64,000 nt of DNA from Takakia lepidozioides. Lineage: Eukaryota; Plantae; Bryophyta. The stretch spans positions 8,122,001 through 8,186,000 of the forward strand of contig CM060731.1 of assembly GCA_030704615.1 (NCBI GenBank), given 5' to 3'. The position numbers were made by a program, and so were the translations under genes. The notes beneath the pieces are model-generated. The model had not been told where the DNA came from. It saw only the letters and a program-made list of their open reading frames with translations, and did no database searches. Shown here in pieces: positions 4,117 to 62,649 of the stretch; position 1 is the stretch's first letter, and each line of letters begins with the position of its first letter.

Positions 4117-4139
4117 CCAAAGTTAAAGTTAGACTGGAC

Positions 4140-4410: not shown

Positions 4411-4536
4411 AACTGGACCGATATCAAGAAATTAAAATATCTGACTCATTCTTCTTTTTAGTCCTTACTTCCTTTCTTCTGTGTTTCTGGCTTGGAGTGG
4501 AACCTCAATCCTCTACCTTCATGCCCTTCTATAAGG

Positions 4537-5653: not shown

Positions 5654-8600
5654 CCTACCTCGAAGCAAAATAAACCTCAAATTCTATCAGGACCTGCAGG
5701 AACAAAGGCTCAAGTTATCAGCGGGTATTAACTGGTCTTCCAAAGGAGAAAAAATGACCAAATACTTCTTTGCGAAAACTAGACTTAGAAAGGCATCTCA
5801 AGCGATAGCGGAGCTCATTGATCCATCTTTTGGGGATTCCACCTCTGTACCAAAGCACATGTCATATCTAGCTGTTGATCACTTACAGTCTCTCTTTCAC
5901 AATGATGTGCCCTTGGATTCTATTCTTCACAATGACTGTCTCGCTCACACCCCAAAGCTCCTCTCTCATGCCGCTGCCGAAATCCTTGATGGTCCTCTCC
6001 CACAGTCTGAGCTGTCTAAGGCATTGTCCAGGCTTAAGGATGACAAATCCTCGGGTCTGGATGGTATCCCGGTTGAGTTTTATAAAACCCTCTGGTCCCA
6101 CATCTGTAGACGACTTTCTAGCTATGTCAAATCATATCTTTGACTCACACCTCATGCCAAGTTCCATGTCTCAAGGAGAGTGCACTCTCTTTTTAAAAAA
6201 AGGGGACATGACAAACATCTCTAACTATAGACCTATAACTTTGCTAAACGTGGCTTACAAAATTATTGCTAAAGGTCTAGCTCTTCGTCTTCAGCCATAC
6301 CTGCTAACCATCATCAGACCTAGTCAAACAGGATTGATCAAAGGCCGATACATCATGGATAATATCCTCCTTTGCCCAGAGCTACCTCACTATGCCGACG
6401 AACCAGCCAAGCTTTAAAGCCTTCTCCTCCTTGATTTCGAAAAAGCTTTTGATAGGGTTGAGTGGCCTTTCTTGCTAGGAACCCTCGCGAAGATAGGGTT
6501 GCCCCCTTCCTTTTGTCAGTGGGTTCGCATCCTCCTTCTTGGCTCCTCCAGCAGGTATTCATAAACAGTTCAGTTTCCAAACCTTCTCTCGGCAGATCTG
6601 TTCGTCAAGGCTGCCCCTTAGCACCCTTTTTGTTCATCATTGCAGCTGATACCCTTGGCTACATGTTGCAAGCTAACCATCACATAGTGGGGCTCAAAAT
6701 CAAAACACTCCAAATCTGGACAGTGGTGCACTAACTCTGGCATCCTTTTGTGATGCTTCTGGATTTAAAGTAAACTGGAAAAAGACTTGTGCCCTGCTGG
6801 TAGGTGATACTTATAGGTCCCTTTTGGGTCATGTTCCCGATTGGGGGGATGCCCTAGGCCTGCTTTGGCTGAAGCCAGGGCAAACAACTACATTGCTTGG
6901 TTACACCTTCGGTGTGGACCTATCTGACGAGCAGCGCTTTGCCCCTATCCTCTCCAAATGCAAAAGGCACCTGTTGTTTGGGGTTGGTTCTTTTCATTCC
7001 TCTCCATCACTGGACGTGCGTTAATTGCGAATCAGGTCATCTATGCTAGCATTTGGTTTTTTTCATCTTCATGGAGCACTCCCTGAGTCCGATCTGCGAA
7101 TATAGGGCTTTGATAAGGAGCTATATTTGGGGAGTTCATACAGTGGGGCAAAAGATGAGACCTCAAGTAGCATGGAAGCAAATTTGTCTTCCTAAAAAGA
7201 TGGGGGTCTTGGGATTTTGGATTCCGAGACCCAAATCACTGCACTGCTCGACAAGTGGCTCCCAAGGTTCCTTGGCCCGGAGGGGGGGTGGTGGAAATTT
7301 CTAGTGGTGGAAAACTTACAGATAGCCAGCCCTCTCAAAGTCTCATGCTGGCAGCCCTCGTGCCACTGGATCACGCAAGGTTTCAATCACAAAATGGTTG
7401 GATCCCCTCTCTGCATTTCTATCTGGAAGGCATGGTCCAAAATCAGACCCTTCTTGCGGAAATCAGAGCCTGAATCTTATGAAGAGACTCTAAGACAACA
7501 TCTATTTCCTTAATGGTAATGCTCCCTCTGCTACAGAAAGAAGCCAAGCCAAAAAATGGTCAGCCTGGGATGTAAGAGGAGTCAGCCAGTTGAAGGATCT
7601 GTGGAGCTCTTCCAGATTCTTGCAAATAGAATCTATTGCTCCAAGGATTGGAACATCAAGGGCAAAGGCGGGTCTCAACGATATTATCCAAAGCATCCCA
7701 GCACGATGGGTGACCTCCTTGCAAGCACGACAAGTTACTCCAATGATGAACTTTTGGACTCTGGGCATCATAAATAACCAACTAACTATCCTACTGGTGC
7801 TAGAAATCACTGCCACTCATTTCTCCAGGTTTTCCTTTCACATAAATCCTGACACTCTTGTCTTGATCCTGGCCTCCCAATCCCCATCCCTGTTTCCCCG
7901 CTTCACCCATACTCCTGTAAGAATCTGTAACTGGTCTTCCAAATTCAAGGAGTTCAATCCGCAGCCTCCCCTCACCATCCCTATTCTCTCTTGTTATCTT
8001 CGTCCACCTTTCTCTGGATTTCTGGCAGGCCTCTGTCCGAGCTTCATCTGGACCCTAAGGAATGGGATTGGGCCTTTGGCCGTTCTCCTTCCCCATTTCT
8101 TACATACATCACCAAGAAGGCCTACAAGGCGCTAAGCAACCCTACCCCAATTTATGAAAAGTGGAATGTTAAATGGAGTCATTTCAGCTTTGCCAATGAA
8201 AACTGGGGTTCTATTTGGGCGTTGATCTGGCTTAAAATCAAACGTGCTAAAATTTCTGCCTTCTTTTGGCAGATGGCTAATAGAGCCCTCAAAGTAGGGG
8301 AATGGTTACAATTCCATGGAGCCCTTCTATGCTCCTGTTGCTCCTCCGGAATCATTGAAACACATGAGCACTGCCTCCTTACGTGTACAACCCCGGCGAA
8401 AATATGGCCTTTGATCAAAGTATTCTACAGGCACTGGAGCCTCCTTGATCTTTCCCCAATTATCCTGCTCCTCAACTACAACCAGACCTCCAAAGGGAGA
8501 GCCATCAACTGCCCGGTCTTCGAGACCCTTAGAGCTTCGGCTTTGTGGCATCTATGGCGTGCGCGTTGTACTAGGTCTTTCAATGGTGAGACTTGCTCTA

Positions 8601-8851
8601 CTTCGGCCCTTCTCTCTTCAATTTACAGCGACTTACTAATCGAATCGAGAAAAGCATGGGCAAAATGTGTTGCAAATTGCGAAAAGAAACCTAGGCAAGC
8701 GCCCTCAATCCATGCCACCTTCAGATCAACGTGGGCCTCCCATGGCATCATTTGTCAAAGCGACGAGCAAGATCTCTGTATTTGGAACCCTCTCCCCCCT
8801 CAACGCTGGAGAAACCTTCGAGCTCTACTCCACGACCTCGCCAGAGTTTGA
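5654..8851 (+). mobile_element. L1-clade LINE ORF2 (RT + zf-RVT), decayed
   Basis: GEKMTKYFF, GLDGIPVEFYK, NYRPITLLNVAYKIIAK, LDFEKAFDRV, VRQGCPLAP and CSCCSSGIIETHEHCLLTC. Frameshifted; the YADD region is not visible. Confidence 0.92.
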
Positions 8852-8996
8852 GAGAGAATTCAATTGGAAACATCTCAAGCACCCCACCACGTCTTCCAGG
8901 CTCAATTTTAGGTAGTTTGCTATAGTCATGGATTAGCTTCTCGGTAATCGATGCTTACAAACAGACCTTCGGCTAAAAAGTATTGGCACTGGGGGC

Positions 8997-11900
8997 GTGG
9001 CTAGGATGGTTTTTCGATCTTACAACATTTTGGCAAGACAAAAATGCAAAAGTACCAAAGGTATTCGACCCCTGTTTCTTGGAGCTAGAGCCTTCATGAG
9101 AGCTATGAAGAAAGACGCGACATTTGCTCTTTATGCGACTCCGATCAAAACCACAACAGACCAAGGTACTTCGACATTACCCACTCAATATCAAGATTTC
9201 AAGGATGTTTTCGAGAAGAAAAATGCAAACATGTTGCTAGAACATCGACCTTATGATTGTGCAATTGAGTTGCAAGAATGAGCTCAACCATCATTCGACC
9301 CGATCTACAATTTATCTCAGACGGAGCTGGCTGCTTTACGCGTATACATTGATGAAAATTTGTCAAAGAATTTCATTCGACATTCGAAATCACCTGCGGG
9401 AGCACCTATTTTATTTGTGAAGAAGAAAGACGGATCGTTACGCATGTGTGTGGACTATCGTGGGCTCAACAAAGTCACTATAAAAAATCGTTACCCACTA
9501 CCGCTGATTTCCGGACTACTCGAACAACTTGGACGAACAACTTTTTTAATAAAGATCGACTTGAGAGGAGCTTAAAACCTTGTACGAATAAAAGAAGGAG
9601 ACGAATGGAAGACTGTTTTTCGCACAAGGTCGGACATTTCGAATACAGTGTTATGCCTTTTAGTCTTACAAATGCTCCAATAATTTTTCAACACATGATG
9701 AATGACATCTTTGAAGAATTTTTAGATGACTTTGTAATCATCTATTTAGACGACATTTTGATATTTTCACATAATGAAGAAGAACATGGTCGCCATGTAC
9801 GCCGTGTCCTTGATAAATTGAGGAAAAAATGACTACATGCCAAGTTGGAAAAATGTCTTTTCCACCAATCTGAAGTACATTATTTCCGACAAATGCATCT
9901 TTATGGATCAGAAGAAAATACAAACCATCATCGAGTGGATTAAATCGGTCCGAGATGTACAATGTTTTCTAGGATTTGCAAATTTCTCATCAAGGACTAC
10001 TTCAAAATTGCTGCACCATTGACACGACTCACAGGGAAGGAAAAATTTGTATGGGACGATAAGGCTGATCAAGCATTTGAAATGTTGAAGCAGGCATTTA
10101 TAACTGCTCCAATACTGGTACATGCAGACCCATCTAAACCATTCTTTCTTTAAGCAGATGCATCGGACTTTGCACTTGGCGCGGTATTCTCTCAATATGG
10201 TACAGATGACCGACTTCAACCTGTTGGTTTTCGTTCTCGCAAATTTTCCGCTGCGGAGATCAATTATGAAATCCATGACAAAGAACTTCTAGAGATTATC
10301 GATGCTTTGAGGAGTGGCGTTATCTATTGGATGGAGCTAAACATCAGGTTACAGTCTATACCGATCACAAAACCCTCGAGTATTTTATGAGTGCTCGTGT
10401 TTTGAATTGACGTCAAGCGAGCTGGAGTATGTCACTAGCAAGGTTTGATTTTGTTATTACATACCGTCCCGGACATCTTCAAGGAAAACCAGATGCTCTT
10501 TCTCGACGATCGTATCTTGCGCCAAAAGAAGGGGATGCAGCTTTTGACCAACAGAAATCCATCATCTTGAAACCAGCAAATCTCCAATTGAATATGTTAT
10601 CCATGTCCATCTATGACGATGTAGAGATCATAAAGGAGATTCAGGAAGCACTGAAGAGCGACCAATTTGCTACGACACTACGAAGTCAACTAAATCGACC
10701 TCGAGACAACCCACATGTTACAAACGACTTCGAATTCAAAGATGACTTACTTTATTTCAAAGGACTTCTCTATGTACCTCGAGAACCTACACGACTTCGA
10801 ATTCTTCAAACATGTCATGATCTTCCGGCTGTAGGACATTTTGGCTTCAACAAAACAATGGAATTGATATCCAGGGACTACTGGTGGCCGCAGATGTGGA
10901 AACTCGTGAAAGAATTTATAAAATCTTGCGACACGTGTGTTAGAACGAAGAGACCACAACATCGACCTTACAGCCTTCTTCAACCATTACCCATTCCCAA
11001 GGGTCCATGGTCGTCCGTGTCTATGGACTTTATTACGGATCTTCCAATTTCCAAAACCACCGATTCAATCTTTGTTATTGTAGATCATTTTACGAAGATA
11101 ACACATTTCATTCCACGTAATAAGACGGTTACCGGCGAGGAAACTGCAAGACTCTTCCTCAATAATATCTACCGCATTCATGGACTCCCAAATGACATCG
11201 TATTTGATCGAGGACCACAGTTCATATCAAATTTCTGGAGGGGATTATTTCACATATTGGATACTAAGATCAAGCTCTCTACAACTAATCATCCACAGAC
11301 TAATGGTCAACCGAACGTGTAAATCAAATTTTGGAGCAGTATCTTCGTTGTATGATAAATTATCACCAAGATAATTGGACGGACCTTCTGTCATTGGCTG
11401 AGTTTGCCTACAACAACACTATACATTTTTCGACCAAACAAACTCCATTTTTCTCCAATTATGGTCATCATCCTCGAGCAAACCCTTTCCACATGAAGAC
11501 CGTTGGCAGCCCTGCTGAAGAAAACCTTGCTACTCATCTCGCTACGATTCACAAGGAGCTTACATTTCACCTCGCTGAAGCTAAAAAAAAATACAAGGAG
11601 TATGCAGATCAACGTCGCCAACTCCAACCCCAGTTCAAGGTCGGAGATCGTGTGTGGCTTCTTCAACGAGACATACAAACCTCGCGACCATCAAGGAAGT
11701 TGGATTATCAACGCCTGGGACCATTCAAAATTATTCGACAAATAAATCCGGTCAGTTTTCGGCTTGAACTCCCACGAAGTATGCGCATCCATCCAGTCTT
11801 TCATGTTTCATTATTGGAGATGTATCATCCACCGAATATTCCAGGGAGAGTCTCCGTACCACCTCCACCGATCGAGGTCAATCAGGAAATTGAGTATGAA

Positions 11901-12080
11901 GTCGACGAAGTCATAGACTCTCGCATCAAGTATAAACGTTTTGAGTATTTCGTACATTGGAAAGGCTACGACATCAGCGAACAAACGTGGGAATCTTCAT
12001 CCAACCTCGCCAATGCATCTGACAAAGTCCAAGAGTTTCATCAATGATATCCAGCTAAGCCCCGAGCTATACGTCAATAA
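8997..12080 (+). mobile_element. Tcn1-like chromovirus pol (RT, RNase H, integrase, chromodomain), decayed
   Basis: [32 protein letters not shown], integrase HHCC (H..GHFG..C..C), SMDFITDLP, GPFKI, HPVFHVSLL and chromodomain EYEVDEVIDSR..YFVHWKGY..TWE. Confidence 0.95.
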
Positions 12081-12685
12081 GACGTCACAACGATGATGTC
12101 AGCCAAGTAAGCTTCAAGGTGAAGACTTCACATTCAATGTACCTGATACACGCTAAGGAGGGAGGAACACCACACATCAGTATATATAGCTAAGCACTTC
12201 CAGCACTCTTGCATCTTGTATTGGCAATATGGAGTCACAGGAACCAGATACATTGGAGTTGTCGCTTACCCAACTATCAGATCAGCCGTTCCGACTCTCA
12301 TGACCTTCAACATCATGCCGACGCTCTTGAGACGATGGGTCACCAATGCGACGCGTACTTCCTCGTCTGGACCCCGTACGACGACAAGTGGAGCCTACTC
12401 GAAGTCTGATAATTCTGTTGGAGGTTGAGGCCTCGGACCCAGAGGACAACGAAATCATGTTTGAAGGCAGCTTCGAAAATCAGAATGTTCAAATCACTGC
12501 GTGGTCCCAAGTTCAAGGTGTTGGACACTATCGATGGTTGTAGGGACTTATAAATCATTTGAGTCAAGAACGAAGAGCCGAATACTTGGCAAGTACCATT
12601 CGCCCGGATTTGGATTTTCTCCAACTCTAAACAAGTCCAAGATTTTACCGCTCCTCGAGGAACTCGGTGCTAGAGGAGGGGGTGA

Positions 12686-13421
12686 TGTCACAGATATAGC
12701 CCAGAGGAACTTACCAGGAGTAAATACCAGAAGTTACCAAGTTACCATGTTATCGGAAGTTACCACGATTTATCGTGATTTACCGTGATTTATCATGATC
12801 TACCATTACTTACCATGTTACCGAAAGTTTACCAAATTACCAAGAGTAACTTTGGAAACGGCTTAGGAAGCTTCCTTTGGAGGAAACTTCTCCATTAAAA
12901 TACCTCATTTGTTTAAGGAAGCTTCTCCCTCAAGAAACCATGTTACCGGGAGTTTACCAAATTACCAAGAGTAACTTTGGAAACGGCTTAGGAAGCTTCC
13001 TTTGGAGGAAACTTCTCCATCAAAATACCTCATTTGTTTAAGGAAGCTTCTCCCTCAAGAAACCTTTGTTTACTCTTGGAAACTTTTACATCAAGAAAAC
13101 TCCATAGGGGAAGCTTCTTAGGAGACTTCTTAGTAGCTAGTATATATAGGTGGCGAGACTGGACATTCTTCAGTCTCGCCAACACCAGTTCAAGCTACTT
13201 TTGTTTCCAGTTTCCAGTATCTGGTATTCCACTCCAGTTTCCAGCATTCCAGTATTCAAGTCGTGTTCCAATATCTTGTACTCTTGTTCATTGTTATAAA
13301 GATCGTCTTGATTCATATTTACTCATCATGCATTCGGCCACGCCGACCTTGACTTCTTGTCTAGTCTTGTACCTCTAGTCTAATCTCTTGTTTGTGTTTA
13401 GTCATGTTCTCGTCCTTGACA
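12686..13421 (+). mobile_element. 3' LTR of the Tcn1-like element
   Basis: PPT AGAGGAGGGGG just upstream and TGTCA...TGACA ends. Internal ~125-bp tandem duplication (~12813-13064). Confidence 0.92.
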
Positions 13422-13769
13422 TAAATAACTATTTCTAACTAATCACAAACAAAACCATGACAGATATTAAAGATTAGAACTCAAATTCTATTTTTTAATT
13501 TTTTAATAGAACAGGGGATAGAAGCCATGGTTAAAATTTTATTAGCAATTATTTGGGGAATTTGTTTTTAAAATCTTATGTTAAATGAGCAATACATATT
13601 CATAGTACATTTTGAAGGAATGTGTCTTGGAATAAAATCCACCATTAATATTGCTTCTCATTATAAAATAATAGCGTCTCCAATGCGCACACGTGTGCGA
13701 GTGGCGGGGCCGTGTATAGCAGAGAGGGCCATGAAGGGTAGGAGCGCCCCTACCCGGTGGATCCGCAGT

Positions 13770-15081: not shown

Positions 15082-15558
15082 AAACTCTCACTCCCAAAAC
15101 TACTACTTAATTTTAATTTCTCAATGCGAAATTAAAACTCTCACTCCCGAAACTCCTACTTCATTTATTTTCTCAGTGCGAAAATAAAAACTCTCACTCC
15201 CGAAACTCCTACTTAAGTTTATTTTCTCAGTGCGAAATTAAAACTCGCACACCCGAAATTCCTACTTAATTTTAATTTCTCAGTGCGAAATTAAAACTCT
15301 CACTCCCGAAACTACTATTTCATTTTATTTCCTCAGTGTGAAATTAAAAACTCTCACTCCCGAAATTACTACTTAATTTTAATTTCTCAGTGCGAAATTA
15401 AAAACTCTCACTCCCGAAACTACTACTTCATTTTATTTTCTCAGTGCGAAATTAAAACTCACTCCCGAAACTACTACTTCATTTTATTTTCTCAGTGCGA
15501 AATTAAAACTCACTCCCGAAACTACTACTTCATTTTAATTTCTCAATGCGAAATTGAA
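15082..15558 (+). repeat. ~53-bp minisatellite, about 9 units
   Basis: Unit AAACTCTCACTCCCGAAACTACTACTT(A/C)ATTTTATTTTCTCAGTGCGAAATTA repeated head to tail. Confidence 0.95.
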
Positions 15559-15849
15559 AGATAGATCAGATAGTTTATCGTTTTGGTGCAACTGCACCCT
15601 ATAAATGTTCTCTTCAGTTGAACAGAAGGAATTTTGGATGTTTCCACCATCTTCCGGGGACCAAATGATCCCATCGTCGTCAGGGATTGTGTTCACATCG
15701 AAGCTCAATTCATGGGTGTGGGAGAGCTTGATCAGTGTCGGAGAGTTGTCATGAAAGGTGCACATTCGAACAGCCTTGGAGAGGCTGAAATGAGCGATCC
15801 CTCAAGGTTATTTAAAAATGATAGGTTGAGTCGCTGGGGGCGCCATCAG

Positions 15850-17495: not shown

Positions 17496-17988
17496 GTCCA
17501 GACCCTTTATATCCCCTACCCGCGGGTCGGGTCCAGGTTTTAATTTTAGGTGGGGCATGCGGGGTCCAACTTAGATGAGGTAGATTTTGCCATGTGTGTG
17601 GAGGGTACGAGCAATAGGCTCTGCTGCAGCAGCCAACCTCCATCACTCAAGGTAGGCCATATGGACAACCAAGCTGTACCCATGTGGTAATGGCCACATA
17701 TCACCTCAAGAAGTGCTTGTGGGTTCAATCCACAGATTCGTGTCACAAAGTTGTGCCCTTCCGTCAAGCGACAACGTAATTTAGGGCTCCTTCAGGGGGC
17801 GTGATGTATATTATTATTAGGACAGCTCCCCTGAGAGATCCATGCTATAGTGATCTACGAGCCTTGTGGCATATTACTTCTTAACATATTTAAGAATTGA
17901 TATGTCGTGCACCTAAGCATCGTGCCACAACATACATCGTTGTCCTACCACACTTCCTAGCATATAGTCCTAGAAAGCCACGCCACAA

Positions 17989-18423
17989 TGATACAGAAAT
18001 GGTGAAAAGAGGTGAACCCACTCTATCACGTTATATAAGTCAAGCCAATGGCACCTTTGCTAAATGACTCCACCATACAGACCTCGCCCACTCTCCATCT
18101 CAAGTACTAGAGCTATGGCGGCGAGAGAGGCCTCGGGAGGTTCGACTAGAAGAAGATGAGCCTGCCTACGTCTCATGTGGAGATAACCTCTCCACGTTCC
18201 AAGTGAGGTTCGCCACCTCACTTGGCACATGGAACCAAATGAAGTCCCAATGCCAACAAAATACAAATATAAATGTATAATGTCCTAATTAACTAGAAAT
18301 AACTATTTCTAGTTAATCACAAACAAAACCATGACAGTTGTCGTGCACCTAAGTGTCGTGCCACAACATACATCGCTGTCCTACCACACTTCCTAGCATA
18401 TAGTCCTAGAAAGCCACGCCACA
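17989..18423 (-). mobile_element. 3' LTR of the PHD-finger gypsy element
   Basis: On the minus strand, PPT AGGGGGG (~18428-18434) is followed by TGTGGCGTGG... ending ...TATCA. The first 85 bp recur at 17903-17987. Confidence 0.7.
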
Positions 18424-18680
18424 ATCGCCCCCCTAGCTGGTGATTAGGTCCCTCTAACACCGGATAGATTGCAAGTATCCACCCCAATAAGATCTTCGCT
18501 TGGTCTTCAATCGCACAAGTCCCAACACCTGAAGTCGATAGATCAAGAGGCCGGGTGCACACGTAGCCCTATCGTTAGTCACCTTCATGCAATCCATGAT
18601 CTTCAGTTGAGTATCCATGGCATTGAAGCCCTACTAGCTAGACCTTAGATCACTTGTCCGCCTCACCATTGTCATGCCTA

Positions 18681-20593
18681 CTACCTCTGTCCAAGGCATC
18701 GTGGACCCAACCATTCTCCGATAGGTACCTCCTCAAGTGGCAGTGTCAAGCATCCTGTGTGCCACCCCCTTGAGCATTTGTCACACACCAACATGGTTGC
18801 GGCGCCACCAGCATGCCCACATAACATGCAACGCAACCCTGCAGGTACCACTGCAAGGTTGGGATCGATCCTCCCATCCACATATGAAAGGTGACATGAC
18901 GCACAATTGCACATATGGTCCTTCCATACCATGCCATCTCGACCCTCCAGAATCAACACTCCTGAAGGCAACACCTCCCTGACCCTTAGAATCACACGTC
19001 CTGCTGTGACATCCAAGGTCGTAGGCGCTATCTATTGCAGATACACATAGTCTTGGCTAGGGTGGAAACACCAAACACTTGGCCGATATCCCCTAGTGGC
19101 GTACCTCAATGTGTCTCGGTGTTGGGCAATAGCAAGGTTCTCAAAAGCCATAGGCATGACTTTCTTGAATAACTTTGCCCGCTGGGCACATGTTTGTGTC
19201 CACACATCCGGATCATCAAGGTTAAGAATTATTAAAGCCTCCCTGCGAATGGATGCAGGTAAATCCGGCTCTCGGCCGAAGAGAAGAAAGTAAGGTGAGA
19301 AGGAGGCAAGTGAAGCTTGTTTGCTGAACCTATAGCCCATAGTTAGCCAAGGCAGTTGAAGGTCCCAATCTCCTAGGTGTCCCTTCTGCAAACCGTACTT
19401 GCGCAATCCTCTCTTGACTGTCTGAACAACTCTATCTGCCAAGCCATCAGTCTCGGGATGATCCCGAGAAGTAGTGCGGTGATCTATCAAGGCTTGCTCA
19501 CACAAAATCTGAAACTCCCCCAAGAACTCTCTCCCCTGGTCCGTGAGTGTTGGAGCACCAAAATGGCTAAGCACTCGATCTAAGAATGCATACCCAGCCC
19601 CCTCACTTGCCTTGTCAGGCAATGCCACTAGTCCAATCCATTTGGAGAAGTGTTCCACCATCACCAGCACATACTTGTTATGGTGAATCGTCAATGACTG
19701 CGAAGTCAAGACTCCAACGATAGCCCAAACCCATAATGGGTAAAAGATGCAATTGTGGAGTAGGTGCATTGAAAGAAGCCCGCACTCTATCACACACCAT
19801 GCACCTTGCCACTAACTGTTGCACATCCGTGTGCATGCCCTGCCACCAATACTGCCCTTGCAGCAAACTATGAGTGCGTCGCACCCCAAAATGTCCCAAC
19901 TCCTCATGGGCATGGCATACCAATCGCGCTCGTTGTGTTGGATGAGGCACAATCCTCCCATACCCGGAGTAGGTGAGTCCCCTCCCACTTGAACCTCTTG
20001 GCTCGTTGTAGGACCCGATCTCTCTCCTTAGCAGTCACACTAGCTGCCGTCTCTCCGGTACGAAGGTATGCCAACATTGCTGCATCTTCATGCACATCCT
20101 TAGCACCACCAAACTCCTCACTAGTCTTTGGATCGTCATGCACGCTATCTACATGACCAATCGCATGGGATTGACCAGCTTGAGCTCCCATTGCTAGAAT
20201 GCACAAAAAGGCCGATGCATGCCATCCTGGCACCATTTCCTCATCCGTCTCACCATGCCACCGAGCTCCAGTATCATCATGCTCGCTCGTGCATGGATTA
20301 CGACTCAATCCATCTGCATCCCGATTGACAATATCGGCTCGATGCACCACCTGAAAGTCGTACTCTTGAAGCATAAGTGCCCACCGTGCAAGCTTCCCTG
20401 TAAGCTTATCTGATTCCATCAACCACTTCAATGGTTGGTGATCCGTGACAAGGGTGAAGAGATTGCCATGAGGTAGCATCTGAAATGTGCCACTGCCCAT
20501 ACCACAGCTAGACACTCCCCTTCATAGGAACTATACTTCGCCTCGGCATTATTGTTCGAGCCGCTAGCATATGCCACTACGAATTCTCTTCCC
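18681..20593 (-). mobile_element. Ty3/gypsy pol 3' half: RNase H, integrase, PHD finger
   Basis: FTLVTDHQPLKWL, KLARWALMLQEYDF, NRDADGLSR, HEELGHFG..CMVC, WSLDFA, TDQGREF and PHD CMLC..MLVCDKCSRGWHTGC..EWLGPRC. Confidence 0.92.
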
Positions 20594-20596
20594 TCA

Positions 20597-20950
20597 CACT
20601 ACAATACAAGCTCGGTTTTTCGACTCTGTATTTGACTCATTTTTTAGTCGTTTGCGATATTTTTACTCCCAGCTTCCATAGTCGAACGTGGGTGACAAAG
20701 GTCAAGTCGTTTCAGTCAAGCAGTCGAATCCAGATATCGGGTTCTGACAGTGAAATGTGACAGTAAAACTAGGGGGTGACGTGTAGTAAAATGATTGTAC
20801 CACAGTATGACGTGGATGAGACGTGGCTATGATGTGGCTATGACATGGCTATGACGTGTAGTAAAATGGTTTAACTGTATTATGACATGGATGCATGATG
20901 TGTACTAAAATAGTTCTACTGCAGTATGACGTGGATGCATGACGTGTACC
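20597..20950 (+). mobile_element. CACTA transposon left end
   Basis: CACTACAA at 20597, followed by CGACT/AGTCG and then TGACGTGG repeats. It truncates the gypsy RNase H. Confidence 0.7.
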
Positions 20951-21439
20951 TAATATATATATACATAAATATAAAATATATATATGAATTGGGGAGGCTT
21001 TTTGTTTAATGTTTGGTTTTATTGTTTTTGTTTATTACTGTTATTTTGTTTTTATTTATTTATTTTCATTTTATATCTATATAAATATGAATTAGTGGGT
21101 TTTGTATTTAAATTTATTGATTCGCTGCACTGCATTGAAAATATATTACAAATACAGCAAAACATAGAATACAAATACATGGCAAGAACCAAAAGCATTT
21201 GGAACTGGTTTATATCAAGAGTGTTTTTAAAACAAGTTTTGGCCACATTCTACAGATGACCAACATGAGGGCCATGTTGCCATATCCATAGATCACTGCC
21301 CAAGTGAAGTCATTGAGGTAGGAAAATCTGATGTGCAGCTAGGTAAAGCACTATCGTGGACATGTCAAGAGAACAAAAGAAATCATTTCGAGAATGAATT
21401 CAGGAACTTGTAGTTCTTGAGAATGGTGGTGCCAGCTAC

Positions 21440-22430
21440 CATGTCACCCAAAGTGACATCCACTTGATCTAGGGTTGCCTTCACATACATATCCACCAAG
21501 GCAGTGTTTAGAGTGACATCTAGTGATACAATTTCAGTTTTGACGATGTCACCATGGACCTTTGTGCCCATTTTAGGGCTGCCAGGCTCACATTTGCCAT
21601 AGATGTACACCAAGGGAATGTTCATAATGACATCTGGTACAATTCCAGCTTTGATAATGTCACCATGAACCTCTTTGCCCCTTCCCAGGGCTGCTAGGCT
21701 TGCATACGCATATTAATAACACAAATGAATATGACCTGGTCTATCTTCATCCCTTCCCACATCATTTGCTCTTATGTTTCCAAAGCCTTAATCCTATACC
21801 CATGCTGCACATACCTTGCAATCATGGCACTCCAAAACACCACATCTCGTTCAGCCATATTGTCGAACTCTCCCTTCGCATCAGGCTTGCATCACCCACA
21901 TTTGGCATACATGTCTACCATGGCAGTGTTCAGAATGCCATCTGGTACAAATCCAGTTTTGATGATGTCACCATGGACCTCTTTCCCCTTTTCCAGAGTT
22001 CCCAGGCTTGCACACGCATTGCAAACACAAACAAACGTGATGTGGTTGGGCTTCACCCTTCGCGCAGCAGTTGCTCATAGGTCTCCAAAGCATTCCTGCC
22101 ACACCTATCCTTGGTAAGTCCTGCCAACATTATATTCCGTGACGTGATCAAAGATCGTTGAGGCACTCTGTGGAAAACTTGGTGAGCATCCATGACGCTC
22201 CCACACTTAACATACATGTTGGCAAGGGTGTTGAGTAGAAAAACATTTGGCACGAATCCACTTTGGATAATGTGAGTGTGCACCTGTTTCCAGCTTCTAG
22301 ACCTTTCATCTTGATGCACTTAAGCAAGAGACAGACATACGTATCTGAATCTGCTGAAATGCCTCGTTGGTTTAAAGTCTGTAGAGCCTCTATCAGTCTG
22401 CCTGCCTCACAAAGCATCTTCACATGCTTA
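21440..22430 (-). pseudogene. PLS-class PPR pseudogene (N-terminal part)
   Basis: LCEAGRLIEAL, TYVCLL, NTLANMYVKCGS, KPNHITFVC and NTALVDMY. Multiple frameshifts. Confidence 0.88.
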
Positions 22431-22486
22431 GCATCCTTGCCTTGTTGCTAGCACCTGACAATGACAGCCTAGATTTGTTCTAGGAA

Positions 22487-24270
22487 ACACCCAACTCAAC
22501 TTATCACATTAGTTCACTATGGTGAATTGCATCTACTAGTCTCTGTAATCCAACAGGCATTCACCTTTTTGCCTCGATTGTCCCACCATTGACTGGGGTC
22601 AGAAAAGTATTCATTCCACAGCTTCTCCTCGTCTCAGCTGTTACCTGATACTTCCTTGTTGTCACATTGGCAGTACCATGTCAAAGTCGCTCCAAATTAT
22701 CAAAGGCTCACTCAACCAGCTAACTTGCAGAATTCAACATGAAAATTTAGGGCCGATTCTGATAAGAGGGAAAAACAGGGTGAAATGTGTTGAAGAAGGT
22801 GCCTTCATTAGCAGTGCTTGAGTATATCATTGTGTCGATGCTGCTGCGGCTTCCAGTTGACCATTTTTCCATGCAGGTTTCTTGTAGCTATTGATCCATC
22901 TGGTACATTTCCAGCTTTGGTGATGCAACCATGCATCTCTTTGCCCTTTTCTAGGGCTGCCAGGCTTGCACATGCACTACACGCACACAAACATGATGTG
23001 GTCGAGCTTCACCCCTTCCCCCATCATTTGCTTTCAGGTCTCCAAAGCCCCATCCGACACCCCTGCTCTGCACACCCTGCAAGCATTGTGTTCTACGACA
23101 CCACATCTCATTCAGCCATAGCGTTGAACATTGCCTTGGCATCTTCGATGCACCCACATTTGGCCACCAGGGCAGGGGCAGTGTTCAGAATGACATCTGG
23201 TAATCTGACCGACATTCACCTTTTAGAATTGTTCCAGCAAACGCCTCACCCCTATTGACTTAGAGGCTGTAGTGTCCAAAGCCATGTCCATTTCCAGAAA
23301 ATTGTCTGATGAAAATGAAGTTAGGCAGAAAACTTCCCCGGACTTGTTTCCAGTCTGTGACATGGGGGAGGACATCATGGATGACCTCAAGGGTCTACCC
23401 ACTCTCGGCACCAGACTGAATTTAAACTCAGGGCAGGAATCCTACTTTTGAATAGCAAACAGAAGCAGAGAGGAAAGGGAGAGTGCAATTGCACCCAACT
23501 CAACGTATCACACTAGTTCCTATGGTCAGTTGCATCTACTACACTCTGTAATCTGACAGGCATTCACCTTTTTGCCTCGGTTGTCCCACCAGTTACTGGG
23601 GTCAGATAAGTTGTCTGTTACCTGTTTTTGGATACTTTCCTGTTGTCACATTGGCAGTATCATGTCAACACTCCAAACAAGATTCACTCAACCAGCTAAC
23701 TTGCAGAATTCAACATGGAAATTTAGGGCCGATTTTGATAAGAAGGAAAAACAGGGTGAAATGTGTTGGAGAAGGTGCCTTCATTAGCAGTGCCTGATTT
23801 TTATCCATTGTGCCGCTGCTGCTGCGGCTTCCAGTTGACCCTCTGTTTCTTGTAGCTATCCTTCCACAGGGAATCATAGGTAATCTGGAGCTTGAAATCC
23901 GGGCCTCTTGGATGAATCTGGACCCACAATCTATCCCTGCACTCCTTCAGCTATCCATGTGTGTGTATAAATCATTAATACATCCTTAGCCTTGCTGCAA
24001 CTAGCAGCTGACACTGACGCCCTAACCCACCTACAGTAACATATCAAAATCACTCCAAACCCACCATAGATCCACCAACGAGCTTCTCCTCATCTATGTT
24101 ATCTGTATCTGGATATTTTCTTGCTGCTACATCGGCAGTAACTTGTCAAAATCACTCCTAACCACCACAGATCCACCCAATGAGCTAACTTACAGAATTC
24201 AATATGCATCTCAGGGCCGAGTCTGATGAGAGGGTAAAACAGGCAGAAATAGGTTGAAGAAGAAGGTGCC
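22487..24270 (+). repeat. Local segmental duplication (~22487-22880, ~23491-23860, degenerate ~24085-24270)
   Basis: Shared block CACCCAACTCAAC...GGCATTCACCTTTTTGCCTC...AGAATTCAACAT...AAAACAGG. Confidence 0.85.
22880..23205 (-). pseudogene. PLS-class PPR fragment
   Basis: ACASLAALEKGKEMHGCI and KCGCIEDAKAMF, with deletions. Confidence 0.8.
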
Positions 24271-25425
24271 CTCACCACATTGTCAACCTTGACCTTGTGT
24301 CATGACCCATGGAGGATTTGACCGACCATCAACTCAAAAGAACGTCTTATGTGTGCTGTTTGTGTCTGTAGTAAGGTAATGTCAGATTTGTCCATGAGAA
24401 CCACCACGGAGCAGCTGAGCGAGCAGAGATTGAAACACGGCCTGCTAAGACCAAGCTGACTCTCCCAAGAACCTTGTAAACATCAGGAAGAATACCAAAT
24501 CATGGTACTAACAGGAGCCAAAAGCCCACATTTGCAGGATGGACAAATTTCTTCACATCCTACATTAAGAAAAAGCCACACCTTGCGATTGCGATTGTTC
24601 CACCATCGTGAAGGATCTGTAAAAAACTCATGTCAGCTCTGCTCCGTGCTGCAAATTCAGGGAACAAAAACAGTCAGAGAAGCAGGTCACATTTTATTTG
24701 GAGGCACAAATATTTGAAGTCGAAGGTCAATAACGTATGGAGGAGTTAACTAGATGTGGTTAAAGATTTCCAGAATGATTCCCAATGATTTCAAGACCAC
24801 ACTGTTCGTTCATAGTTCATACATAACGAAAACTCCATTCCAGGGTTAGCCAAGGTACAATAAGCTTGAAAGCCAAACACTGACTTCATGTGCATGTGAC
24901 TTTGCTAAGAAACATTTGGTAACACATGAAAAGTTTTCCAGCCACCAGTATAACCAAAGAGAATGACCCCATCAGTGTGACTCACCATAATTGACTACTC
25001 TGATATGTGAAATCTACACTTTCACAACATATTTTCGCAAGGGGAAATACGCCTCTTTCTTCTTTTGTTTCTCTGTTTTCAAAGAAGTCTACAACCATCT
25101 CAACCCATTCTTCGTTATGACGTGAAGTAAGATATATTACATGCTCAGCAGGGCCTTTGGAAAACAACTGCCATCACATGGAAAACTACTGCTGCAAAAC
25201 AATGAAGCATTAACTGAAAAGTGCTGGGCAAATCAAGGAAGAGAGATCCAGCCATGGATGAGTTACCAGGACTAAGAGCCCATTTCTCCCAAAGGGGTAC
25301 TACTTGCTCATGGCTGCTAATATAGTTACAATTCCAAGGACACAATACCTACATCTGCAGACTCAGAGATGGGGCATGCATCATTACAGGGGGCACGTGA
25401 AGTAAAAAACCCTAACTGGCCATAC

Positions 25426-25511
25426 ATTTTGGACAACTTATTTGGTGCACCACCCGTCACCTTCGCCACTCTCAGAAGAGCAAGCTCTGCCTTTAGCTCC
25501 TTCAACTGTGC
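25426..25511 (-). pseudogene. RPL35: Isolated exon fragment of 60S ribosomal protein L35
   Basis: [28 protein letters not shown] followed by a GTATGG donor. No other RPL35 exons seen. Confidence 0.85.
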
Positions 25512-25629
25512 CCACAACGATAGTCCCCCATGCATAGCATCAGGTGTCCGTTTCATTCCAAAAGACATCGTCACTACCAAAAGTTTTAGCCTGATCTGAT
25601 TGATGAGAGGGCAAAACTGGCTGAAAATA

Positions 25630-25980
25630 GGTCAAAGAAGAAGGTGCCCTCACCACATTGTCCTCGTCCTTGTGTCATGACCCATGGAGGATTTGACTGA
25701 CCATGAACCCAAACGGACCTCTTGTGTGTGCTGCTTGTGTCTGTAGTCCGGTAATGTCGGATTGGTCCATGAAAACCACCACGGTGCAGCTGAGCGAGCA
25801 GAGATTGAAACACGACTTGGTAAGACCAACCTGGCGAGGAGCGGATTGGTCCATGAGAACCACCACGGTGCAGCTGAGCAAACAGAGATTGAAACACGAC
25901 CTGCTAAGAAATCCGCTCCTCGACAACCACCACGGTGCAGCTGAGCGAGCAGAGATTGAAACACGACCTGCTAAGACCAA
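25630..25980 (+). repeat. Block duplicated from 24260-24455, with three copies of a ~50-bp unit
   Basis: CCACCACGGTGCAGCTGAGCGAGCAGAGATTGAAACACGAC occurs three times here, plus one copy near 24401. Confidence 0.85.
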
Positions 25981-26164
25981 CCCTGCACGAGGACATAGTG
26001 CGTGCAGTAGCGATAGGGCTTAGTGGGGCTTAGTGCATGAGGGGAAAAAAAAACTACGCGAGGAGTTTGAAACCGCGACGCCATGGCGGACAATGAAAGC
26101 CCTTACCAGTAAGCTACATACGCCCATTTGAAATTCCCCCCTAAAAGTATGTATATATACTTTT

Positions 26165-28685
26165 GTAAAGAACTTGCACTTTTCGGGGTGCAGTTTCAAC
26201 CCGTGCGCTCTCAAGTGCTCAAACATCACCTGAACGTGTTTCTCCTGCTCCTCAACCGTAGCACTAAAGACGATGATGTCATCAATGTAGCACCGGGCGA
26301 AGTCTAGCCCCGCGAGAATCCTATCCATGACCCTCTGAAACTCTGCAGGAACATTCTTCAACCCAAACGGTAAGAACCGCATTGGTACAAACAATCCTTC
26401 CCATGTTGGTCAATCCCCCAAAATGTCGTCTTTTGCTTGTCAGCCTCTTTGATTGGCAACTGGTGGTAACCGCATCGCAAGTCCAATGTGCTAAACACCT
26501 TTGCATGCCCAATGGCATCAAAGATCTCTCCTGGAGTTGGCATGACATATCTATCGGACTTAGTCTGACGGTTCACAGGACGATAGTCCCCACACATCCT
26601 TCTTTCTGTCCAATTGCCATAGATATCCTTCTTAGCTGGCATCACCGTTGCCGAGGCATACTCCTCGCCTGACAACTCCACCAATCCAGCTTCGAACAAC
26701 TCCATAGTCCGTGACTGGATCAATGACCTCTCCATGTCACTGTACTGGTAGGGCCTTCAAAAGATTGGCCTGTCACTTGCCAAATCAATACGAATCTCCT
26801 GACCTTTCAAACTCCCCAAATCCTTCAATCCGAAGGCAAAACAATTCCTATAAGCCCTTAGAAATCGTTGGATCCTCCGTCTCTCTCCTCCGGTGACTAT
26901 AGGTCCAACATCTGGTTCCCAATTGTCCTCAGTGACTGCAACCTTGGGTACACCAGGCTTGGAGGTAGGAGACGCATCCTTTGGTTGCTAGATAGCAACC
27001 TCTTGGGCCTTGTCCGTCCAATCTGACTGTGGCGTAGCCTCCACTTGCTCCGCCATAGCCACCTTGAGAACATCCTCCGCGCAAGAAACATCCTCAACCT
27101 CCTTAAAAACCTTGGCCACCTTGGCCTCCAACTGATCCTGAGTCCATGGCTCTCCCCACTCCTCATACTGCTGCTTGAGAGATCCAATGACTCTTTCTTT
27201 GCACATCTCATCCCACATCTGCCATGGTGTTTGCAACCCACGATCCTGTACTCGCCCCCACTCACTGCCTCAGCCGTCCCGGTTGGCAGGGATGATGCAC
27301 CATCCGATGGGAGTGCAGAAGTAGTATCCAATGCTTGCAATCTCCGTTGCTCAGCCATGCACAAGCCAATGACCCATGTCAAGCAATTTAGATCCATTGC
27401 TTGAACCAACACTTGGCGGCGTGATATCTCTGACAGAGCTGGCACATCTGTAGTGCCCGTGGTAAAACCCATTGTCCGCTCTCGCTCATCCGCATTGGGC
27501 TCCACCAATTGCTGTAGCACACTGTCCCAAATCAACCCAGGACCATTGTCTCGGAAAGCATGAGACGAGGGGAAACTCATGACTGTAGGCAAGGCCATAC
27601 GTGGCTACCCCACTCCAATAGCACCGCCGATCCAATCCAAGACTGCACCTGATGCACAACATGGAGTCATCCACAATCCCAACATGTCACATTGTTGTTG
27701 GCCTGAGAATGAAGGAAGTGACCTCTGCAATTGAGATCCTCTCTATCCTTCCCTGGGCTTCACCTGAGCCCCAGCCTCTTAATATATACATAGTTTGTAT
27801 GTGGGGGTATTAAATTAACCCCCTTTTGTTCACGCACGTTGGCTAGGAGCCCCACTTCGTTGTATCTCCTTACCAAACCCCACCATGACCACTCGTTCCT
27901 CCACCATATTGAGCTCTATCCGCTCTGCCAGCAAAAACACGTTTGCTAAGGTGAGTTGGGCCACTTGTAGGAGAGTTGCATCCCCATTCTCCTCGGCTCC
28001 TTGTCCAATATCTCATACCAGAATTGGACTGCTTGAGCTTTCGTAACCCCTTGGGTTACATTTATCAATCGCCTCATGCGTGTGTAAGCCTCCCTCAAAC
28101 TCTCAGTAGGCTTGCGCTGGAACGTAAGCTCCGCAATTTCTCCGTCCTTATCCCCTGGTAGTTTCTCCTCAACTCTTCGAAGAACTCCACAATTGGGTTA
28201 AAGGCAGGCATGGGTGCTGGTGCTGCAGCAGGAGCTTGAGTGGATTTTCTAGCTCCATTTTTACTTATCCCACTATTAGTGCTTGCAGTTGGGGATGTTG
28301 GTGTAGCTGCTGGTGTCGCCGCTGCCTTTGTGCCTCTAGTGATAGAGATATAGTCAGGTGACCAATATTGTCGTCACCCCTCAATCTCCACCTCATTTCC
28401 CCGCCTAAACTCATGGTAGTCATCCATATGCGGCCCCTCAAGGTGCTGAAACAGCCCCATCCACGTCATAAAAGGCATAAACAGTTGTGGATTGCGCATC
28501 TGCTACAAATCACACCAACTATCAAACTTCTGTATGAAATCATCAAGCTCGATGGTGCCCACAGCTCCAGAGTACCGACGTGGCCCCTTAGTAGCTCCAT
28601 ACATTTCCTCCATCGTATCCCACAACAATGGCACGGAAATGGCTTGTATCCTCGGCGATAATCCTCTTGACTCCGAGTCTGGTTA
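26165..28685 (-). mobile_element. Ty3/gypsy 5' half: gag, C5-methyltransferase-like remnant, reverse transcriptase
   Basis: RT: RRMCGDYRPVN, FSTLDLRCGYHQ, FLPFGLKN, YIDDIIVFS, KLHPEKCKF. Gag-like frame RYSGAVGTIELDDFIQKFDSW...FFEELRRNY (~27950-28670). Segment EPNADERERTMGF..RRQVLVQAMD. Confidence 0.85.
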
Positions 28686-28965
28686 GGGACCATTCAAAAT
28701 TATTCGACAAATAAATCCGGTCAGATTTCGGCTTGAACTCCCACGAAGAATGCGCTTCCAGTATCTGGTACTCCAGTCCAGTTTCCAGCATTCCAGTATT
28801 CAAGTCGTGTTCCAATATCTTGTACTCTTGATCATTGTTATAAAGATCGTCTTGATTCCTATTTACTCATCGTGTATTCAGCCACGCCGACCTTGACTTC
28901 TTGTCTAGTCTTGTACCTCTAGTCTGATCTCTTATTTGTGTCCAGTCATGTTCTCGTCCCTGACA
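28686..28965 (+). mobile_element. Deleted Tcn1-like derivative: integrase fragment fused to LTR 3' end
   Basis: 28686-28760 matches ~11717-11797. 28757-28965 matches the LTR end ...GTCCCTGACA. Confidence 0.9.
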
Positions 28966-47000: not shown

Positions 47001-50000
47001 TTTCTCTGGAAGGCAGTAGCCCTTGTGGTGAAGAAACACCATGAGTTACGCTTCCTTCGGGAGACGTCATAGTTTCTCTGCAGGCTGCCTTCTTCCCTGA
47101 TGAGATGTTCTGATTGAGCGCTTGTTCAAAAAAGCCACATCCAAGCCCATGGAATTGGGGCTTCAATTGTGGTCATGCCTCCCTTCCAATCTCCCAAAAC
47201 TCTTCCTACCTCCAGCACACTCATCTGTGCACACATTTTGTTCTTCCTCATGGTCTTTAACTTTTATATGTTTGAGTTGTCTTTATTGCATCAGTCACAA
47301 GTCAAGCTTTATGGTTTTTTTGTTTTTTTTTGGGTGGGGGATAGCCATCATTTAGGTATACAAGCATGATTGTGTACATGTATTCAACATAGATGCATCA
47401 AACTGGTGGGCTGTGGATTCTAATTCAGCACACAACTCTTTGTAATGAGGGGGGTTTCACATTGTTGTTTTACCAATCATACGAAAGATGGAACAGGTGG
47501 ACGAAAGTGACGAGCTTCCGGAGAAAATGGCAGCAGTTCAAGTCACGACATTCTTTGCAACAGCTGATAATGGGATTCTCCCTCATGATAAGGTCTCTCT
47601 AATGGATTTTGTGGTGAACATTCTGAATTCTTGGCTTAGGAACTTTAGTTATGGGATAAAGATGAAGAAGGAAATAAATGTTCAAATGAGCAAAGCTTTG
47701 TCCTCAACCAAAAAAATCTTATTCTTTTCACGATAACCACCAGTGTTGTGATTTCCAAAGTAAGCAAAGTAGCTCACTTTTGACCCCTTCATGCTATATA
47801 GTGATACTGAGGTTTCATGAAGGAAAACTGATTTGCAGGGGTTTGTGGGTGTAGTTCGTCAATTTCTTAGATGTGTGTTAAGGAACATGCCTCAACAACA
47901 GATTGATACATTCTTTGCATTGTCTGCGGAAGCATGGAGAATGTAGAAATTGTAGTACTATATTTGTTTCTAACAGGTTTACAGGTGGATAACAGTTGGA
48001 GCTTGATGATCCAAAGCTGAGGCTCCTCAATGTTTTTGTTCCATATCTTTATTTATACTCAAAGCCAAATACCCATGCACAAGAGGTTGCAGCTGTTGCG
48101 GTGGTCGGCTCCTTTGAGAAGAGAACGTTACGTGATTTTGTTGGCATGGTAAGAATCATCCTTAGGTCTTTGACTTATTACAAACAGGATCTGTGATGCA
48201 CAAATGTTCAAACAGTGCATTGTGAAGGTTTCACATGTTTATGGATCAAAACACATGAAATTTTGTAGGATCTTCAAACTGTAGCCTGCTTGATGTTTCC
48301 AAATTACCCCAACGCACTACCATCCAATTTGATTAAGGATGGAGCCTTCAACTTGCCATTGGTAGATCATGTATAAATCCTGGCTCCCTCGTCCAGGTAT
48401 TTCTCTTCACACATGATGACTTGTTCACCAAAACAAACATCTCTATTGAATAGGAGGAAGTGGACCCAAAAACAAAGGGGACATTGGTGAAGTTCAGCTA
48501 CAACCTCTTGCTGGGGAACATGATTGAAGCTTACAACGCAATGCAACGAATCAAGGACAGAGACATATGGGCTAATATAGCTGGCACTTGTGTGAAATCC
48601 AAGGATGTTGATATTGCTGTCTACTGCTTTGCCAATATGGACTGTGCTTCAGCAGCATCTTTTGTTACCACTGCTAATGAAGACCTGGTATGTGTTGTCT
48701 ACAACATGACTTTTATGACATGTGTTGCAGCTTGCCAGATGTCAAAATCCAAGACTATTGAATTCAATCAGGAAACAAAGAGCAATGGCATTTTGACCAT
48801 TTCTTGATTGTTGTAGGAGGAAGATGCAAGGGTAGCAGCCATAGCCATCCAACTAGGGCTCCTGGATGATGCAGAGAAGCTATATATTGATTGCCAGCGT
48901 TATGATCTTCTTAACCAGCTGTATCAGGTAATCACACTACTCTAGCGGATTCTGCACGGCAGTAACATATTGTTCCACCCACCTCTCTGTTTTATATTCA
49001 TTAACACGGCATTGCTTTTATTACTATCAACCTCCAAAGAAAAATGTGATGAACATGTGAAAAAACAACACACTTCACTTGTGAAGAAAGAGTGCAAGTC
49101 TTAGTATGCTCCCACATTTCTACATACGTGGTTGTTGAGCACTGGTTATGGTAGTTACTCAACTCAATAAAACTATGATCCAGTGGATGTGGGTTTTCAA
49201 GCTTTAGTTTTCACCTTTTGCTTATGCTTCAGCAATTGCACGACGTGGTTGTCAGTTTCTTTGGTTTTACCTTTTAATATGTATTTTAACATTCTTTAGT
49301 ATAACGTTCTATTTCACGTGCCATAATCGAACACTTTTTGGTGGTAAGTTGGTTGGCTATTGTCTAGCAGGCCTATGGTTCCTGTGAAATTTTGGAATGC
49401 AACTTTCAGCCAAGATGACAAAATATCATTTTGATTTGTTTTCAAAGCTTACATCATGGTATGTTAGTATCTCCTTCAGTCTTAATGTGTGCAGACATGT
49501 GGGGAGTGGGAGAAAGCAATTGAAGTAGCTTCAAAGTATGACCGAGTGCACCTAAAAAACACACACCATGCCTATGCCAAGCACTTGGAGGCTATTGGCA
49601 ATACCAAAGATGCCATCCACCACTACGAAGTTTCGGTCACCCACAGGTAATGACCTAGAAAATGATGAGTCTCAGGGGTCCTGGGTGGTGGACATGATTT
49701 TGTCTATTCTGGAACAATATTCCACATCCCTAGAAACCCTTTCTCCTTTGCCAATTCCCAGCAGCCGAAGTCCACATCCTTCATAACTTGCCAAGCTTGA
49801 AGGACAACCATTTAGCAAAATGTGTGCAACATTACGATCCTGAAATTTAATGTGTGCACATATCAAAAAGGTTATCTCTCTCGATAATGCCTCTCTTCCA
49901 AATGCACATGAAAATTTCTTTGCCATAGCCACACAAGTTTTGACATGGCTGGCCAAGCTTTTTCTTCCGTGTTTGGGTCGAGTCTGTCCGATAATATTCA

Positions 50001-61184: not shown

Positions 61185-61508
<324 letters not shown>

Positions 61509-62307: not shown

Positions 62308-62649
<342 letters not shown>

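Follow-up and report, generated by a model that had tools for sequence, protein, structure and literature searches.

In a stretch of 64,000 nucleotides (nt) from Takakia lepidozioides (contig CM060731.1 of assembly GCA_030704615.1, positions 8,122,001 to 8,186,000; "the window" below), the minus strand carries a dead Ty3/Gypsy retrotransposon copy. Between its gag remnant and its reverse transcriptase (RT) lies a peptide that is almost certainly the C-terminal part (motifs IX-X) of a DNMT3-type cytosine-5 (C5) DNA methyltransferase. The explanation of the whole that we favor, with some reserve, is a Gypsy family of non-flowering land plants in which Gag, protease (PR) and the DNMT3-type domain (DNMT) form one frame, and in which the enzyme, packaged in bulk, likely methylates the element's own new DNA.

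A DNMT3 inside a Gypsy element, KnitGypsy-Dnmt3 of Klebsormidium nitens, was described in 2018 (de Mendoza et al., PMC5890265). The name "Gypsy-DNMT3" of streptophytes is used in the available text of a preprint (bioRxiv 10.64898/2026.05.21.726589), and both this preprint (2026) and PMC12344493 (2025) say "streptophytes" there, citing the 2018 work. Why a retrotransposon carries the silencing enzyme of its host has been an open question since 2018, because the carriers known so far are algae for which little genetics is available. In Marchantia polymorpha, Gag-PR-DNMT frames without stops bring this question into a model land plant. The kind of element is known from an alga; new here are its land-plant range, the Gag-linked position of the domain with a likely leaky stop, and split-repeat ends of integrase type. 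We found no land-plant report, conserved stop or integration model in the literature, in which figures and preprint supplements may show land-plant copies. No such element appears in the available text of PMC6453930, PMC11982613, PMC6317226 or the Chlamydomonas v6 preprint, the last of which mentions a PHD-bearing Gypsy.

Identity of the methyltransferase tail

The minus-strand frame at 26897-27604 has a translation that runs from PRMALPTVMSFPSSHAF through EPNADERERTMGFTTGTT to VLVQAMDLNCLTWVI. The tail peptide occupies 27350-27604 (-) and is flanked on that strand by the gag remnant (28613-27659) and by RT (26936-26167); tail homology begins at 27613 (-), and a stop codon stands at 27607-27605. 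Although the tail has only 88 codons, protein comparison matched 49 of 76 candidates at E<=1e-3 with 58-81% identity (best match: E 8e-38, 81% identity), bearing out the preliminary description of this DNA, which had reported such a peptide between gag and RT. A search of 1.84 billion cluster representatives returned 490 at E<=1e-3. Named proteins among the 49 relatives come from Marchantia polymorpha, Sphagnum and Calypogeia, in which catalytic motifs are present, and 16 of the 49 carry the methyltransferase family PF00145. Compared alone, the peptide gave a negative result with HMMER against PF00145, the check suggested in the preliminary description (0 Pfam families at E<=1), and it matched no methyltransferase in PDB, where a match to TARBP2 (E 0.6) was dismissed as chance. 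Because the peptide alone matches no profile, its identity as a methyltransferase comes from the PF00145 domains of its relatives and from the alignment of a relative to human DNMT3A. The ERERAMG...LGQAMD stretch of the relative pairs there with the C-terminal segment of DNMT3A; this stretch is weak on its own, and the G of LGQAM is replaced by V in the window copy.

Full domains of the relatives contain motifs I (FxG), IV (PC), VI (ENV), VIII (RxR), IX and X in the normal, unrearranged order. With a profile of 14 relatives, DNMT3A scored best (2e-23), followed by a plant-type entry (1e-12), DRM2 (7e-10) and M.HhaI (4e-8). Another profile comparison was set aside as circular, since its alignment includes close relatives. 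The predicted structure of relative P0005 (pLDDT 86) matched DNMT3A/B/C by Foldseek in every row listed (best E 1.5e-19), and its fold matches DNMT3A over the whole domain. The tail had been described as of DNMT3/DRM type; the DNMT3 assignment stands on motif order, profile and fold, and the DRM assignment does not. The circularly rearranged order of DRM found no support, motif I preceding motifs IV-X in all full domains, and DRM entries match only part of the relatives' profile. By profile and modeled fold, the predicted domain is of DNMT3 type, with DRM, DNMT2 and bacterial enzymes more distant. The catalytic domain of human DNMT3A is its best profile and fold match and has the same motif order, but identity is about 22%, and the retroelement domain has no PWWP or ADD and is embedded in a Gag-PR frame. 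As a lead, an Atlas feature search pointed to a C5 methylase cluster, mostly Streptophyta.

Gene order, kinship and constraint

The preliminary description had also proposed that this family encodes its own C5 methyltransferase, and full domains between protease and RT were found in Marchantia open reading frames (ORFs) and in metagenome loci. The Marchantia ORFs, such as Mp_4g09160 (P0007), are stop-free Gag-PR-DNMT frames with LFGG, GWPC, ENV and RxR, so that the catalytic motifs looked for upstream of the tail are in place. Eighty metagenome loci were fetched with P0005; these are the best 80 of 160 and are biased to close relatives. Where neighbors are present, their gene order is gag-PR-DNMT-RT-RNase H (RH)-integrase (INT)-PHD, and ten of the 80 have matches from gag through PHD. 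The family shows the Ty3/Gypsy order gag-PR-RT-RH-INT with a DDE integrase (triad in the loci: D 27/27, D 22/29, E 21/26); in the window copy the protease is deleted and the E replaced. No chromodomain was found by Pfam at the integrase end, which has a PHD finger instead.

A second layout, RT-RH-DNMT-INT-PHD, was found in 69 proteins, compared with 52 in the gag-PR-DNMT layout and 142 without an assigned layout. Proteins of the second layout form a large and diverse group (including P0124, P0134, P0146, P0162, P0174 and P0198), one of them labeled Cymbomonas, the one organism name obtained for 20 representatives. DNMT3-Gypsy elements likely reach chlorophyte algae. The EpiLTRs of Cymbomonas and Euglena, also long terminal repeat (LTR) elements, likewise pair a cytosine methyltransferase with a chromatin reader, but by the preprint text they combine a DNMT4-related enzyme, an adenine methyltransferase and a chromodomain, whereas the land-plant family has a DNMT3-type enzyme and PHD (bioRxiv 10.64898/2026.05.21.726589).

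Trees were built with FastTree. The DNMT tree held 120 proteins with >=240 profile positions, plus P0002, P0270 and P0271 added by hand; shorter matches were excluded. The window fragment fell in a clade with Marchantia, Sphagnum and Calypogeia proteins (support 0.993). The first RT tree excluded RT pieces below a length cut, including that of the window; added afterwards, the window RT fragment grouped with the same bryophyte elements (0.986). In the RT tree the two layouts were sister groups (0.955 and 0.929) joined at 0.995, which fits one capture of the DNMT domain and a later move between layouts; basal support of the trees is low, and no direction of the move is claimed. Liverwort and peat-moss relatives carry the domain at the same place, and the family is not peculiar to the Takakia genome. 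The same metagenome sets contain a second, more distant subfamily (L065, L067, L073, L074, L066, L076 and L077; 44-49% to P0005), in which some loci have a longer gap between methyltransferase and RT.

KnitGypsy-Dnmt3 shares with the land-plant family its Gypsy domains, a DNMT3-type domain that is unrearranged and evolves under purifying selection, and DIRS-like terminal repeats (Fig. 4c legend; PMC5890265). It has been described for one charophyte alga. It may also differ in the place of its domain, said to sit in the Pol ORF, whereas the land-plant domain, though mostly in frame with RT, ends the Gag-PR frame at a stop. A PHD finger, target duplications, a primer site and an integration route do not appear in the text of that paper; Marchantia is absent from its text and text supplements, and "split" and "target site" from its text. 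The two elements are likened here by description, and no Klebsormidium-labeled protein was found among the protein-search matches.

Catalytic motifs were largely retained at aligned sites of the 80 metagenome loci (LFGG 53/61, PC pair 63/72, ENV 55/62). Proportions of synonymous (pS) and nonsynonymous (pN) differences between window and loci were similar for the tail (0.76 and 0.21) and RT (0.79 and 0.20), and divergence of the tail equals that of gag, RT and integrase (67% median). Median ratios of nonsynonymous to synonymous rates (dN/dS) in distant locus pairs were 0.27 for the N half of the domain, 0.22 for the C half and 0.20 for RNase H. By these figures, constraint on the predicted methyltransferase domain at long distances is roughly that on RT. 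Several results weigh against the explanation favored here. RxR is intact at only 22 of 72 aligned sites, and most relatives are dead, with 3 of 41 full-length domains free of stops. In closer pairs the N-terminal half had dN/dS of 0.62 and 0.55 vs 0.45 and 0.35 for RT, and over short distances constraint on it is below that on RT or integrase. The domain is under purifying selection, though in close pairs of decayed copies this selection is weaker than the Ka/Ks<0.2 given in the text of PMC5890265. CpG depletion was considered as a sign of self-methylation and set aside as uninformative: observed/expected (o/e) is ~0.5 here, and likewise 0.42 in a long interspersed nuclear element (LINE) in the window.

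Split ends, conserved stop and proposed mechanism

End repeats were found by self-comparison of 26 long loci and then mapped. Two full identical LTRs were not found at the ends, which are split as A...B-nn-A-B (eight loci and the window) or A...B. Elements start with TGTCATG and end in ...GACA or ...AACA (TG...CA), and 4-bp target duplications flank five of six independent sites with both ends (L016, L042, L060, L062/L064 and L078; L019 is unclear); only the right end is in place in the window. The inner B-nn-A joint reads CA, two bases, TG, in the window too, and B1 is preceded by a purine tract. In 6 of 17 left ends the bases that directly follow A1 can pair over 10-12 nt with a site in A (control windows: 3 of 1020), and in four of these six the partner lies ~30 nt behind the TATAAA position. 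A primer site that pairs with the 5' region of its own element, a partial feature here, recalls the self-priming Tf1/Sushi-Tcn1 elements (PMC6317226). Tcn1 differs in having ordinary LTRs and a chromodomain, and the text of that survey mentions PHD or methyltransferase nowhere.

Together, the split repeats, TG...CA termini, 4-bp duplications and DDE integrase suggest integration from a circle. Reverse transcription would yield a normal LTR equal to B-nn-A, with the purine tract before B and the self-complementary primer site after A; the complementary DNA (cDNA) would then circularize, and on the sequence pattern we judge it fairly probable that the DDE integrase opens the CA-nn-TG palindrome, giving A...B-nn-A-B and a 4-bp duplication. 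Retroelement circles are usually taken as dead ends, and split ends with integrase-type duplications would make circles a substrate for insertion. An analogy from bacterial DNA transposons is the circle-junction integration of IS3/IS911, in which a DDE enzyme acts on ends that abut across a short spacer. Three points speak against this route. A single B was found in 11 loci; just 6 of the 17 left ends, members of one family and not independent, have a primer-site match of >=10 nt; and L042 and L059 share a right flank yet differ in repeat form, so that recombination or assembly collapse also shapes the repeats. Single-B forms may come from one-LTR circles, B1-B2 recombination or assembly collapse.

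Split repeats could instead arise by a DIRS/Ngaro-like tyrosine-recombinase route, or by a double cut of linear cDNA followed by repair, but we regard this as doubtful. The layout equals that of DIRS-type split repeats, and single-B forms are compatible with two cuts in linear DNA; TG...CA ends with 4-bp duplications are, however, integrase marks, and a double cut alone cannot yield the second A-B. The 12 leaders searched contained no frame >133 codons and had gaps that mostly break the frame, and no recombinase-sized ORF was found in leaders or antisense. No recombinase family was found among Pfam matches of 32 related proteins. The land-plant family thus differs from DIRS/Ngaro elements in having a DDE integrase and no tyrosine recombinase in leaders, antisense or Pfam matches. 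SymbioDIRS-Dnmt3 of Symbiodinium is also a retroelement-borne DNMT3, of which two copies methylated CG de novo in yeast according to the text of PMC5890265, the sole activity data for this kind of element in the literature consulted; it belongs to the DIRS class with tyrosine recombinase, and the one Symbiodinium-labeled match (P0270) is very distant (E 7e-7).

The methyltransferase is followed by a conserved stop. In 44 of 47 loci the RT match is preceded, at a distance of 66-87 nt, by TAG or TAA and then CAA-CYY; DNMT and RT are in the same frame in 34 of the 47, and stored proteins of the land-plant branch stop 120-190 residues beyond motif IX. The window stop is TAG at 26990-26988 in the context TAG CAA CCA, with no ATG behind; it fits CARYYA, a readthrough context in plant viruses as given in the text of PMC4132726. 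As read from these frames, the DNMT domain of the land-plant branch closes the predicted Gag frame at the conserved stop and is not in an open pol frame, and the stop is likely read through. Two observations count against readthrough: 43 of the 44 loci read CAA-CYC-ATG, which is not CARYYA and puts an ATG two codons past the stop, so that re-initiation there is possible, and the distant relatives P0157, P0211 and P0265 have no stop between DNMT and RT.

Since DNMT lies ahead of the conserved stop, the methyltransferase would be made at Gag level. With good probability, ribosomes would mostly halt at UAG-CAA and occasionally read through, yielding methyltransferase at Gag level and RT and integrase at a lower one. 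It is then marginally the better guess that the protease would release the enzyme inside the particle, that fresh double-stranded cDNA would be methylated there and that the new copy would arrive pre-marked; the Gag-level position predicts the particle, on cDNA, as the site of action. The PHD finger might steer the integrase to a histone state. PHD fingers of KDM5A and KDM5B read unmodified H3K4, the mark also read by the ADD domain of DNMT3A.

Against catalysis, the isolated KnitGypsy-Dnmt3 domain gave no methylation in yeast, a result called inconclusive in the text of PMC5890265. That negative result would also fit a domain kept for binding, which would cover or protect cDNA or RNA inside the particle or divert host methylation as a decoy; Gag-level amounts fit a structural role, and some distant relatives have no matches to the motif patterns used. 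We consider a binding role unlikely: most land-plant copies still have the catalytic PC and ENV, the fold matches DNMT3A across the whole domain, and human DNMT3B failed in the same yeast test too (PMC5890265). Less likely again is an enzyme active in the nucleus on chromosomal copies, for self-restraint or silencing of rivals, in place of particle cDNA. Slowing of transposition is listed as a possibility in the text of de Mendoza et al. (PMC5890265) and the PHD finger points to chromatin, but this finger is on the integrase and not on the methyltransferase, which belongs to the Gag-PR frame and by general retroelement biology would be packaged. Capture of a host-gene fragment by one copy, or a chance look-alike, could be suspected from the 88 codons that alone match nothing in Pfam or PDB, and is refuted by colinear relatives in liverworts and peat moss, by divergence equal to the other domains and by sister copies that continue across both breaks.

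A broader version of cDNA methylation in the particle is speculative when taken in all its parts: an old green-plant Gypsy lineage, abundant in bryophytes and missed by LTR finders, would pack DNMT3 at capsid level by a leaky stop, methylate its cDNA and integrate as a circle by its DDE integrase. Families without paired LTRs are likely missed by LTR-based catalogues, and their ORFs inflate counts of host methyltransferases. If this version is true, land plants contain a source of de novo methylation that is mobile and independent of the host, as well as a retroelement that integrates from the two-LTR circle.

The window copy and its surroundings

The window copy is dead, with many stops and frameshifts and two deletions (Table 1). 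It retains only motifs IX-X and a short piece after motif VI. Residues 1-298 of the Marchantia ORF P0007 (Gag-PR-DNMT, 1278 aa) correspond to 28613-27692, and the match then jumps to residue 1113 at 27613. The first deletion removed ~720 codons (the rest of gag, protease and motifs I, IV and VI) and the second ~66 codons (motif VIII). Protease and N-terminal motifs are thus both missing, as the preliminary description had it, by two deletions and not one. In the best-matching sequencing runs, contigs of other copies break off in loose ends at 27614 and, on both sides, at 27658, marking both junctions; judged by eye, the loose-end sequence corresponds to three parts of the relatives, namely the remainder of the zinc knuckle, the segment following motif VI and the beginning of motif VIII. 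Sister copies therefore continue past both breaks, and other copies in the host hold more of the methyltransferase domain. Weighing against an intact domain in the host, none of its own copies showed motifs I, IV or VI within the reach of the loose ends, which is only 30 letters. One contig crosses the second junction without differences; it has only 29 letters on one side (threshold 31) and was not counted as a bridge. Summed contig depths suggest many copies in the host and give no copy number.

Table 1. Parts of the DNMT3-Gypsy copy and associated features in the window
Feature	Position	Strand	Basis and remarks
Gag remnant	27659..28613	-	tblastn to Marchantia P0007 residues 1-298; frameshifts near 28122 and 27985, stops; ends inside zinc knuckle
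14-codon methyltransferase piece (segment after motif VI), other frame	27614..27658	-	~P0007 residues 1033-1046; codons at 27657-27616
DNMT3-type C-terminal tail (end of target-recognition region, motifs IX and X)	27350..27613	-	Protein comparison, alignment, tree
TAG CAA CCA, stop closing Gag-PR-DNMT frame, in frame with RT	26982..26990	-	Sequence, frames, conservation in loci
RT, N-terminal part, one stop and frameshift	26167..26936	-	Pfam RVT_1; 67-77% identity to Marchantia P0043
5.6-kb foreign insertion replacing ~125 codons of RT/RNase H	20597..26166	.	CACTA-like end at 20597; PPR fragments
RNase H C-terminal part and linker	19964..20595	-	Pfam RT_RNaseH
Integrase, zinc-binding and core domains, frameshifted	19032..20034	-	Pfam Integrase_H2C2 and rve; D-D-E triad is D-D-D here
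PHD finger at integrase end	18684..18860	-	Pfam PHD 8e-9; best solved matches are KDM5B and KDM5A PHD fingers
Polypurine-tract-like AGGGGGG directly before repeat B1	18428..18434	-	Same place in loci L064, L062, L019
Repeat B1, ends ...CACGACA, then 2-nt spacer	18339..18425	-	96.6% identical to B2 over 87 nt
Repeat A2, begins TGTCATG	17990..18336	-	Repeat mapping
Repeat B2, right end of element (...CACGACA), then TATC	17903..17989	-	Repeat mapping
Isolated first 40 nt of repeat A	13423..13462	-	95% identity to A2 start; TATC precedes, chromovirus LTR cuts off

The isolated start of repeat A lies 4.4 kb past the right end of the element on the same strand, shares the 4-bp flank TATC with that end (17899-17902) and runs into a chromovirus LTR. 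It is possibly the displaced left end of the window copy, with the order of the pieces unexplained. A piece of the same chromovirus LTR and integrase lies upstream of gag at 28686-28965.

The insertion at 20597-26166 contains fragments of PPR genes (~21400-23250, similar to 568-899) and internal repeats, and it is possibly a gene-capturing DNA transposon. A Tcn1-like chromovirus occupies ~2600-13421 (+), with RT, integrase, SH3, chromodomain and an LTR at 12686-13421; it is interrupted by a LINE-like element and by an inverted solo LTR at 5057-5653. It is only ~31% identical in RT/RH to the DNMT3-Gypsy element, and its pol shows no CpG depletion (o/e 1.03; neighboring elements ~0.5).

The window also has PPR genes whose motifs include E and E+, and an IFT140/IFT172-type gene (48454-55261, +) whose exons are separated by long repeat-filled introns. 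PPR genes of this kind (E, E+) together with IFT exons point to a land plant with flagellated sperm and not to a flowering plant; this reading of the lineage is based on gene content, and a search with an IFT140 exon gave no match. A histone H4 gene lies at 62311-62649 (-) and has a 93% identical 300-nt duplicate 1.1 kb away (region 61184-62649). A tandem array of about nine to ten units of 51-54 nt spans 15082-15594.

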